A stretch of DNA of 64,000 bases from Candidatus Daviesbacteria bacterium (GTDB lineage: Bacteria > Patescibacteriota > Microgenomatia > Daviesbacterales > UBA10151), in assembly GCA_016184225.1 (NCBI GenBank), contig JACPDA010000005.1, positions 3,590 through 67,589 on the forward strand, in the 5' to 3' direction. This document shows positions 19,311-21,002 of this stretch, in pieces. The stretch's first letter is position 1. Every line of letters begins with the position of its first letter. The notes under the pieces were generated by a model. It ran no database searches. It saw nothing but the letters and a program-made list of their open reading frames with translations, and was not told the origin of the DNA. The translations under genes were made by a program, and so were the position numbers.

Positions 19311-21002
19311 TTGACGGTAAGAAAACTACCAGGTATACTACCCTATAATATGAGAACTTCTGTGGAGCACCGTCGCGAAAGAGACAATACCCCGCCGGAG
19401 GTGTTGACACTAATGAGAACAGTAGAGGCTTATCGTCAGAGACTTGCCGAGTATAAAATGGTTACCCCTGACAAAGGTGAAACTTCCCGGACGCAGATGG
19501 TATATCAAAGAGGACCTGTTCTGGCACCTTATATAGAGGAAATGCGTAATTTGTCGGTCGCTGTTCGTCACGCAGCGCAGTTTAAAATACAGGCACCTTG
19601 GATAGGAAATTATCTTCTGGGTGACATTTATACCCACCAAATCAGGTGGGTCTCGCTGGCAGACATTGAGCAGATGTCACTCCCTTTATCTTTGGTTAGC
19701 ATGAGTCAAATCAACCGGTTCCTGCGACGTTATCCATTATTAAAGTTTACCTTAAGTAAGTCTGCATTAGTAGCTCAGGAGACAGCAACCATTTTGCCGT
19801 CACTGGACATTGCCAACCCTCATAAAAAACGCTTAATTCCGCCGACGCTTCAGCCACTGCACGCCCGGATGACAGCCTACTTTGATTATTTCACCAATTT
19901 TATAACTGCTTCTCATCTGGATTCGGAGAGAGAAGAAAAATTTGTCTCTGCTGTTGTATCTGCTGGTCCGTACTTCCTGTCGGGTGTGGGGTGCTTTCTG
20001 CCGGCCCGCCTGGGCATTACTCCCTCATCTGCCTTGAAATTATTGGAAGAGAAAACTGTTTCTGGTCTCTATTCTTGGCAATGGGGGATTCTCAGAAAAA
20101 GAATGGAAAAAGAGGTCTGTCATGCTTACCCTGTGAACGGCTTTCCGGAAAATTTGCAGAAGTATCAACACTATAACCCCCAAGCGGATCAGAGAGCGAC
20201 TGAACTTCTTTTAAAAGTAAACAGCGAACAACCAGGGGGAGTGGTAGGAATTGATAATTTGTTTGAGAGACTGTGGCGTTATTGGAAAATTCTGCGCTCT
20301 GACATTTTTCGCTCCGACCGTAAATATCTTGAGTTTCCCCTTGATCATTCAGTTATCGACAGGTTGGAGGTAGCAAGTCAATATCGCCACTCGCTGACAT
20401 TTTTTGTGTTCTTCAAGGATAATCAAACCCACCTGACGCTGGAGGTAAGTAGAAATGGTCAAAGAATTTACGGCATCCCCAGGGCGTTACTTAGAGAGTT
20501 TCCTCATATTGGAGATGTTTTGGCTAAAGTTATTTTTGATCCGGTGCTGGATGATGCCCGTCGAAAACATCCTAATATCGAGCCTGCTCCCACCATAATA
20601 ACGGCAACTGTTCCCTCCGACAGGAACGGCGAGCAGGCGGATCTTGAGCCGGACGTACCGGTAAAACCTCCGAAGAGGAGACTTACCTTAGCTGTACAGA
20701 GTTTATTTCACGACTCTCCGCTTCCCCTGCCGGTTGAACCCAAAAACCGTCTTTGTGAAGTCCAATATTCCAGGACTTTGGTTGTTGAGTTGATAGGAAG
20801 GAGAGTGCAGGATAAGGTTATTGACAGAATCATGGCTACTTTGAGAGGCTTTGAATGGGGAGAGAAAAGAGCGAAAAGGTTGGCAGCTCTGCCGGGACTT
20901 TACCGGCTAAGAGTTGGAGACTGGCGGATTATACTGGAGCGTTTAGGAAGTGGGAATGCATATAGTATTTCCACTATTGATAACCGTGATAGCGTTTACT
21001 AG
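19311..21002 (+). CDS. Large hypothetical protein (563 aa) with a C-terminal RelE/ParE-like toxin-fold domain
   Basis: Last ~60 aa (...LPGLYRLRVGDWRIILERLGSGNAYSISTIDNRDSVY) fit the RelE/ParE signature; composition appears more GC-rich than the surroundings. Confidence 0.5.
   Translation: MTVRKLPGILPYNMRTSVEHRRERDNTPPEVLTLMRTVEAYRQRLAEYKMVTPDKGETSRTQMVYQRGPVLAPYIEEMRNLSVAVRHAAQFKIQAPWIGNYLLGDIYTHQIRWVSLADIEQMSLPLSLVSMSQINRFLRRYPLLKFTLSKSALVAQETATILPSLDIANPHKKRLIPPTLQPLHARMTAYFDYFTNFITASHLDSEREEKFVSAVVSAGPYFLSGVGCFLPARLGITPSSALKLLEEKTVSGLYSWQWGILRKRMEKEVCHAYPVNGFPENLQKYQHYNPQADQRATELLLKVNSEQPGGVVGIDNLFERLWRYWKILRSDIFRSDRKYLEFPLDHSVIDRLEVASQYRHSLTFFVFFKDNQTHLTLEVSRNGQRIYGIPRALLREFPHIGDVLAKVIFDPVLDDARRKHPNIEPAPTIITATVPSDRNGEQADLEPDVPVKPPKRRLTLAVQSLFHDSPLPLPVEPKNRLCEVQYSRTLVVELIGRRVQDKVIDRIMATLRGFEWGEKRAKRLAALPGLYRLRVGDWRIILERLGSGNAYSISTIDNRDSVY

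Follow-up and report, generated by a model that had tools for sequence, protein, structure and literature searches.

The locus

We analysed a 64,000-nucleotide stretch of DNA from the groundwater genome of a Candidatus Daviesbacteria bacterium (contig JACPDA010000005.1, positions 3,590 to 67,589 of the forward strand; hereafter the window), focusing on a gene at window positions 19311-21002 that encodes a large protein predicted to end in a RelE-type toxin fold. This RelE-fusion gene, an open reading frame (ORF) of 563 amino acids (aa) on the forward strand, is present in the ORF list exactly as described by a first-pass annotation made from the sequence alone. Its true start is probably the ATG at 19350 rather than the TTG at 19311, because an NCBI hypothetical protein from Candidatus Daviesbacteria (HYU45_04465, 550 aa, 100% identical) begins at Met14 of the 563-aa ORF and the first residue of the closest homologue, P0002 (71% identity), is the equivalent methionine. 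In addition, TTG 19311 forms part of the -35 hexamer of a promoter-like site whose 3' end lies 10 nt ahead of ATG 19350 (Table 1). A transcript from this site would have a very short leader before the ATG, or none.

The gene stands alone. The consensus scan found promoter-like sites on both strands of the upstream intergenic region, which contains no antitoxin-sized ORF (ORF list, minimum 40 aa). The first-pass annotation had seen no obvious antitoxin ORF, and indeed none of at least 40 aa fits in the 124 bp upstream or the 15 bp downstream. The adjacent, co-oriented small antitoxin gene typical of a relBE-like operon is therefore absent at this locus, and the window contains neither a paralogue nor a separate RelE gene. 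Upstream, the divergent gene at 18506-19225 (-), previously called an S-adenosylmethionine methyltransferase, is a class I enzyme (Methyltransf_11, E=9e-23). Downstream, fmt and def are convergent with the RelE-fusion gene (fmt: Formyl_trans_N, E=9e-35).

Table 1. Features of the RelE-fusion gene and its immediate surroundings, in window coordinates
Feature	Position	Strand	Details
Longest ORF	19311..21002	+	TTG start, 563 aa; ORF list
Most likely coding sequence	19350..21002	+	ATG start, 550 aa + stop
Upstream intergenic region, shared with the divergent methyltransferase gene	19226..19349	.	124 bp
Promoter-like site, TTGACG-17 nt-TATACT	19311..19339	+	Consensus scan, 10/12 matches; pattern match alone
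N-terminal arginine-rich motif (family NRxxRR; here EHRRERDN, aa 18-25)	19362..19385	+	Low-confidence tail
Conserved N-terminal domain, aa ~18-420	19362..20570	+	Predicted structure, pLDDT mostly 90-98
Motif PARLGITPSS, aa 231-240	20001..20030	+	Most conserved motif of the family
Proline-rich flexible linker, aa 421-480	20571..20750	+	pLDDT 53-75
RelE-type (BECR-fold) domain, aa 481-563	20751..20999	+	PHROG, PDB profile, Foldseek, predicted structure
Gap to convergent fmt	21003..21017	.	15 bp; no space for a downstream antitoxin or immunity gene

A predicted RelE-type domain at the C-terminus

The RelE/ParE pattern that the first-pass annotation had seen at the C-terminus is real and beyond chance. 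At the sequence level, PHROG 1213 ('RelE-like toxin') covers aa 499-563 of the window protein (E=1.1e-5) and matches the homologue P0004 at E=1.1e-8. When a profile of 113 family members was compared with PDB sequences, the five best matches were all RelE proteins (3bpq_B, E=0.01; 3g5o_B; 9g12_A; 2khe_A; 4v7k_Ay), followed by HigB. The Pfam family PF05016 (ParE_toxin) scores 15.1 bits on the window protein (E=0.035), below its gathering cut-off of 23, and matches 13 of 82 family members at E<=1 (best 2.8e-5).

Structure prediction recovers the same fold. An AlphaFold2 (AF2) model built from the 113-sequence alignment reached a mean predicted local distance difference test score (pLDDT) of 90.9 and a predicted template modelling score (pTM) of 0.89. 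Within aa 481-563, it places a strand (483-485), two helices (488-495 and 501-515), three strands forming an antiparallel sheet (530-535, 538-545 and 550-558) and a short helix (559-562), all at pLDDT 94-98. Foldseek searches of the PDB matched the C-terminus alone, to 2khe, 9g12, 3bpq, 4fxh, HigB and ParE, with probabilities of 0.96-1.0 and target-normalized template modelling (TM) scores of 0.45-0.64, while in BFVD the C-terminus matched small RelE-like phage proteins. We conclude that aa 481-563 are predicted to adopt the fold of the RelE/ParE (BECR) superfamily and to be of RelE type, closest to RelE itself.

Catalytic-type residues appear to be conserved in this domain. We mapped residues to E. 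coli RelE through a HMMER alignment to 4v7k, which is itself marginal (E=0.32), and counted conservation over the 100 members that carry the main C-terminal type. On this mapping, R539 (kept in 99%) aligns with RelE R61, R559 (R/K in 99%) with R81, R534 (R/K in 94%) with R56 and Y563 (Y in 66%, F in 13%) with Y87. Mean pairwise identity across the domain is 25%.

Beyond the fusion proteins, the family profile reaches stand-alone toxins of 79-84 aa at E~1e-6 in a search of 1.84 billion proteins, and these clear the PF05016 cut-off. The two whose contigs were looked up, P0151 and P0152, lie in two-gene operons, each downstream of an overlapping antitoxin-like gene of 72-156 aa. Separately, P0143 (303 aa) and P0150 (657 aa) share the same 'FExG' RelE-type C-terminus behind N-terminal regions that the family profile does not match, which suggests further undescribed multidomain RelE architectures.

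The N-terminal domain and linker

The preceding ~500 aa, in which the first-pass annotation had recognized no motif, proved equally featureless to database searches: ~480 residues have no match in Pfam, NCBIfam, PADLOC, PHROGs, PDB or BFVD. Specifically, NCBIfam and PADLOC returned nothing for the N-terminal domain (N-domain), PHROGs and a profile search of PDB sequences gave nothing credible, and scanning 82 members singly against Pfam revealed no recurrent family besides ParE_toxin on the C-terminus. Foldseek against PDB and BFVD produced merely low-probability N-domain matches with root-mean-square deviations of 16-25 A. An exhaustive profile search found the N-domain confined to the RelE-fusion family.

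In the AF2 model, the N-domain consists of a helical region (18-334), a four-stranded sheet (340-380) and closing helices (391-419). Conservation here and in the linker was counted over 113 members. Conservation across the whole protein peaks in the N-domain, at PARLGITPSS, GxSLxDIExM (113-122), YFDYY (190-194), D293 and HLTLE...YGxP (374-390). Within PARLGITPSS, P231 is kept in 99 of the 113 members, A232 in 97, R233 in 92, G235 and P238 in 103 each, and S240 in 108. The motif sits at a junction between helices 220-234 and 238-251 in the model, and this helix-turn-helix-like arrangement is at most suggestive of an antitoxin domain. Near the N-terminus, where residues 1-20 have pLDDT values of 45-58, arginine occupies alignment positions 18 and 22 of the NRxxRR motif in 91/113 and 94/113 members, respectively; we take this motif to resemble arginine-rich RNA-binding peptides.

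The linker is the least conserved part of the protein, with a mean pairwise identity of 11.8% versus 22-25% in the two domains. It nevertheless carries conserved KR and PxLPxP patches, and P421, P447, P469 and P472 are kept. Only weak signals, at positions 105, 229 and 366, mark N-domain residues that track the type of C-terminus.

Family distribution and possible exchange of the C-terminus

Word-index homology searches yielded only 10-11 relatives, and an exhaustive profile search of 1.84 billion representatives was required to recover the family. This search identified 173 representatives at E<=0.001, at least 128 of them at E<=1e-30, nearly all 560-630 aa long and spanning both domains. In more than 100 representatives, then, the fusion is obligatory. 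Daviesbacteria and Blackburnbacteria account for the named members; most of the others are known from single contigs, assembled from raw reads or drawn from groundwater metagenomes (for example, Hainich). No family member was found among IMG/VR viral contigs.

Among 113 long members, 100 carry the main RelE-type C-terminus, while 11 end in a different sequence of ~110 aa (consensus DPxGPGTYKI...SFRGD...LRxVYY...HxxFD). Homology between the two types was considered and rejected (hhalign probability 0.5%), and profile searches of PDB and Pfam with the second type gave non-significant hints of YoeB/HigB. An AF2 model of P0116 from Daviesbacteria, the only second-type member modelled (pLDDT 86.8, pTM 0.75), has a C-terminus that matches RelE/HigB structures in Foldseek (1wmi_A, TM 0.71; probabilities 0.96-1.0). 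Second-type members keep R67, R84 and H104 invariant (alignment A3), presumably at YoeB/HigB-like positions.

In a neighbour-joining tree of the N-domain, the 11 members are scattered over four positions, which is weak evidence because the tree is star-like and unsupported. In some closely related pairs, identity falls abruptly at the domain boundary. P0005 and P0012 share 79% identity over the N-domain, 81% over the linker and 51% over the RelE domain; for P0033 and P0040, the corresponding values are 47%, 27% and 18%. In P0008 and P0009, by comparison, they are 82%, 70% and 90%. Four close pairs (P0005/P0012, P0033/P0040, P0025/P0042 and P0051/P0064) are mosaic, the N-domain being far more similar than the RelE domain, which suggests that the C-terminal cassette has been exchanged or evolves faster. 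A variable C-terminal cassette on a conserved N-terminal body, as in polymorphic toxins, is therefore present. Taken together, the two RelE-fold C-termini and the mosaic pairs indicate an N-module that always comes with a RelE-fold module, the latter behaving as a semi-independent cassette.

Genomic context

A genome scan using two peptide patterns, so that locus counts are lower bounds, found 5 loci among 185,579 species genomes. No neighbour, antitoxin or other, is conserved among the loci examined. In the window, the gene lies between the methyltransferase gene and fmt-def, and fmt-def also adjoins it in L013, a related groundwater contig. Elsewhere, it neighbours a beta-lactamase-like gene (L004), a 194-aa unknown followed by uvrA (L005) or comM (L006); in L010, it has the gene gap and a pilin gene upstream and a PIN toxin downstream; and in L008, it lies between thyA-folA-glyA upstream and rpsB-tsf-frr downstream. 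In L001 from Blackburnbacteria (4394-5839), rps/rpl-rpoA, murI, a Bro-N gene and a 160-aa unknown lie upstream and recA downstream. A functional link to the divergent methyltransferase was rejected, as the methyltransferase adjoins the gene in no other locus examined.

The position of the gene is polymorphic. Window positions 50144-54317 hold dcd-thyA-folA-rpsB-tsf-frr as a contiguous run in which rpsB directly follows folA and the RelE-fusion gene is absent, whereas in L008 (291-10929) glyA, the RelE-fusion gene and three small unknown ORFs lie between folA and rpsB. Comparison of the two sequences indicates an insertion/deletion polymorphism of the family gene in this interval. Presence in the one run and absence from the other therefore place the gene at different loci in related genomes. 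Where the locus is shared, the gene diverges rapidly: between L013 and the window, the RelE-fusion proteins are 28.5% identical, versus 49% for fmt, 60% for def, 82% for a small protein and 65% for a TPR protein. To judge by these comparisons, the RelE-fusion gene behaves as an accessory, fast-evolving gene.

Several observations concern individual loci. The species-representative metagenome-assembled genomes of L006, L008, L009 and L010 are titled 'uncultured Gammaproteobacteria bacterium'. The Tsf, ThyA, FolA, GlyA, RpsB and Frr proteins of L008 are 42-59% identical to those of the window and encoded in the same order, and its Tsf is the short 153-aa form; at least for L008, the Gammaproteobacteria label is doubtful and looks wrong. 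In L009 (110-1972), the family gene appears split into ORFs of 121 and 471 aa, which points to a frameshift or pseudogene, or else to misassembly, of a gene that is intact in L008. In L001, the family gene follows the Bro-N gene and the 160-aa protein, which has no Pfam match, between murI and recA, and these genes may form a small mobile or phage-derived islet.

The window fmt (21018-21719, -) is short, encoding 233 aa, and its Formyl_trans_N match is limited to profile positions 79-181. Against the 311-aa Fmt of L013, the alignment covers residues 74-310; the window protein thus lacks ~58 residues close to its N-terminus while retaining the MKIAFLGTP start. A 388-aa protein encoded at 16011-17177 (+) ends in an RNA_pol_A_CTD domain (E=9.5e-15), with a weak match to sigma-70 region 4, and without the alpha N-terminal domains is an unusual stand-alone protein of the alpha C-terminal domain type. 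Two genes for four-helix-bundle '23S rRNA intervening sequence' proteins (PF05635), at 17848-18237 (-) and 22940-23305 (-), match at E=8e-33 and 1e-36 and show weak bAvd-like matches too; they lie ~1 kb upstream and ~2 kb downstream of the RelE-fusion gene, with other genes between.

Base composition and origin

The first-pass annotation had found the gene visibly more GC-rich than its surroundings and had taken its composition as a sign of horizontal origin. The first statement stands only marginally. GC content is 45.9% versus 41.7% for the window (z=2.0 among sliding windows of equal size), while against 49 ORFs (mean 42.0%, sd 2.8) the gene lies only ~1.4 sd above the mean, and four further ORFs in the window equal or exceed it. 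GC at third codon positions (GC3) is 43.8% versus 39.9% (sd 5.5), within the normal range. The excess is concentrated at codon position 1 (53.5%) and therefore reflects amino-acid composition. The second statement is not supported: GC and GC3 lie inside the normal range of window ORFs, and L013, with a family member at the corresponding position upstream of fmt-def, argues for a resident gene rather than a recently transferred one. A viral origin was likewise rejected, with no relative in IMG/VR viral contigs and no PHROG for the N-domain.

A proposed self-restrained RelE switch and its alternatives

The first-pass annotation had offered two readings, a novel toxin or abortive-infection effector and a domesticated RelE fold, and these remain the two leading hypotheses. 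We tentatively favour a form of the former, to which we give slightly less than an even chance: the protein would be a self-restrained, single-chain mRNA endonuclease that depends on the ribosome and serves as a switch in stress or defence. The nuclease activity, cis-inhibition, trigger and biological role set out here are those that we infer. The C-terminal 83-residue domain would cut mRNA in the ribosomal A site, and a flexible, proline-rich linker of ~60 residues would tie it to the 400-residue family-specific domain. The latter would act in cis, keeping the RelE domain docked and inactive or away from the A site, until a signal (a cue from phage or stress, or linker cleavage) frees it and translation is shut down. 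The gene would thereby constitute a stand-alone growth-arrest or abortive-infection-like switch in Microgenomates, bacteria of the Candidate Phyla Radiation (CPR). Restraint in cis by the N-domain is most likely because an unrestrained RelE would poison its own cell and no trans inhibitor is encoded nearby. In the model of the window protein, a pTM of 0.89 despite ~60 disordered residues suggests that the RelE domain is confidently docked on the N-domain.

Several observations weigh against this proposal. The pTM value is the sole basis for docking, and the value of 0.75 for P0116 would also fit a C-terminus that is not docked. Conservation at the equivalents of RelE K52/K54 is incomplete, with R/K at position 532 in just 37% of members, and Y563 is lost in about one-fifth of them. 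The N-domain is basic (pI 9.5 in the window protein, family median 8.6; net charge +11), unlike typical acidic antitoxins, and charge complementarity of the acidic-antitoxin kind was accordingly rejected. No antitoxin Pfam family (HTH, RHH, YefM/Phd, ParD, MqsA and others) recurs in the 82 members scanned. We also rejected the linker or N-domain as a remnant of a cognate antitoxin, since the antitoxins of the nearest stand-alone toxins are unlike them (hmmsearch ~1 bit; hhalign probability <2%). Finally, there is no consistent defence-island context, and PADLOC-DB 2.0 holds no defence-protein family that matches the window protein at E<=10.

The main rival is a domesticated RelE fold. Here the C-terminus would mainly bring the protein to the A site or mRNA, and the N-domain would do the real job (for example, ribosome rescue, quality control, hibernation or an enzymatic step on ribosome or RNA) as an accessory CPR translation factor. 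The whole protein is basic, the N-domain strongly so, the N-terminus bears the arginine-rich NRxxRR motif, and the top-conserved residues of the N-domain resemble a functional site (PARLGITPSS, D192, D293, E378 and G388). Translation and housekeeping genes are neighbours at several loci (fmt-def in the window and L013; rps/rpl/rpoA and recA in L001; rpsB-tsf-frr in L008), although CPR genomes are dense in translation genes and such neighbours carry little weight, and no mobile-element or viral association was found. We nonetheless regard domestication as rather unlikely. The distribution looks patchy, with the 5 scanned loci as a lower bound; the gene is missing from the window's dcd-thyA-folA-rpsB-tsf-frr run and present at the matching place in L008; it evolves ~2x as fast as its neighbours; its C-terminal module is exchanged or abruptly divergent; and the conserved catalytic-type residues favour a working nuclease over an anchor. 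A catalytically dead fold, serving as a structural or protein-binding module with a function unrelated to toxins, would account for the imperfect retention of the K52/K54 equivalents, for the loss of Y563 in ~20% of members and for the missing antitoxin, as expected of a harmless domain. Of all the explanations weighed here, it is the least probable, given that 99% of members retain R539 and R559 although mean pairwise identity of the domain is 25%, and that the second C-terminal type independently keeps invariant Arg and His residues (R67, R84 and H104).

The cassette-like C-terminus raises a different explanation, in which an episymbiotic CPR cell exports or injects the protein, with the N-domain serving for delivery or self-protection and the RelE cassette as an exchangeable warhead. 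Two unrelated RelE-fold C-termini on one N-module, at four places in the N-domain tree, and the sharp fall of identity at the domain boundary in close pairs would fit such a polymorphic-type toxin; cassette behaviour of this kind is said, by Zhang, Aravind and colleagues writing in 2012, to be typical of polymorphic toxins. Yet none of the 82 members has a Pfam family, and so no known secretion or trafficking domain, on the N-domain. The N-terminus is hydrophilic and Arg-rich with no long hydrophobic helix predicted, although no dedicated signal-peptide predictor was run. No immunity gene is conserved downstream, where fmt converges at 15 bp in the window and other genes lie elsewhere, and the star-like, unsupported tree weakens the inference of multiple swaps. 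Delivery therefore strikes us as distinctly unlikely. Less likely again is ParE-like action, in which the C-terminus would poison DNA gyrase instead of cleaving mRNA. The sole Pfam family matched is PF05016 'ParE_toxin', and ParE structures (6xrw, 6x0a and 5ceg) occur among the Foldseek matches. However, E. coli RelE is itself a member of PF05016, as are further RNases that depend on the ribosome (Gerdes 2025, PMC11980606), and the 'ParE' label is therefore no argument for gyrase targeting. The profile search of PDB sequences that placed RelE first and HigB next returned no ParE at E<=10, the ParE entries in Foldseek rank below RelE, which matches best, and HigB, the PHROG match is to a 'RelE-like toxin', and, in the alignment to RelE, R61, R81 and Y87 fall within the RvGdyRii and R..vY motifs.

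A more specific version of the self-restrained switch is possible, if doubtful: an immune or stress sensor made of one protein and confined to ultra-small CPR bacteria, in which the new fold of ~400 residues would sense a phage or host cue and release an exchangeable RelE-fold nuclease into the A site. Such a sensor would represent a new class in translation-arrest immunity, in organisms with a poorly known defence repertoire. Alternatively, the new domain may be an enzyme carried to the ribosome by the RelE fold.

Comparison with known systems

The closest counterparts are the RelE toxins of relBE modules (E. coli 4v7k/4fxh, M. jannaschii RelE3 3bpq, M. tuberculosis 3g5o/9g12 and T. thermophilus 2khe), which share the fold order and give the best sequence and structure matches. 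Putative counterparts of R61, R81 and Y87 are conserved in the family, as far as the marginal alignment to 4v7k (E=0.32) allows, while the K52/K54 equivalents are just partly basic. In contrast to these stand-alone proteins of ~90 aa, the domain described here is the C-terminal sixth of a 550-aa protein, and the RelB-type antitoxin gene of relBE modules has no equivalent at the loci examined. RelE toxins exemplify the textbook two-gene toxin-antitoxin logic; in this sizeable family, the RelE fold is always joined to a large domain of unknown fold and lacks an antitoxin gene. The closest sequence relatives of the C-terminal domain are the stand-alone 'FExG' RelE-like toxins P0151, P0152 and P0155, which share its FE.G and RxGxYRII motifs. 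They are only 79-84 aa long, and the proteins encoded upstream of P0151 and P0152 are unlike the family's linker or N-domain.

The logic proposed here, in which one domain of a chain holds back the toxin domain of that chain, has parallels among unrelated toxins. EzeT is reportedly a single-chain toxin-antitoxin protein with cis-acting inhibition. With CapRel(SJ46), the family would share this logic by analogy and not by homology; CapRel is reported to be released by direct binding of a phage protein (PMC9712102). The toxin of CapRel(SJ46) is a RelA/SpoT-type pyrophosphokinase and that of EzeT a zeta kinase, whereas that of the family is of RelE type, with a putative restraint and trigger.

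Multidomain or fused BECR proteins likewise join a RelE/ParE-superfamily domain to another domain in one chain, and many were set aside in a recent survey with no antitoxin identifiable (Gerdes 2025, PMC11980606). In the fusions that it lists, the partner is a short recognizable antitoxin domain, a PIN-like domain in a three-gene operon or a membrane anchor, whereas the present family has a partner domain of 400 aa with an unknown fold, and the gene is solitary. Neither the family's taxa nor the one accession sought turned up in the accessible parts of the survey's text and supplements, and our search of the literature on RelE together with CPR found no description of the family. Lacking a separate antitoxin gene, the locus does not form a canonical relBE module; without a recognizable antitoxin domain, the protein does not belong to the fused mono-gene classes listed by Gerdes 2025; and it is not a catalogued defence system.

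If the N-domain restrains and releases the nuclease, it would constitute a new cis-regulatory or sensor domain and the gene a compact single-gene switch for translation arrest, offering a handle on conflict systems in CPR bacteria, where few defence mechanisms are characterized. Should the RelE fold instead serve as a ribosome-targeting device, the family would offer a rare example of a domesticated toxin fold. Both this fold and the concept of multidomain or fused RelE proteins are already known; new are the partner domain, the solitary-gene architecture and the CPR-restricted, previously undescribed family that carries them.

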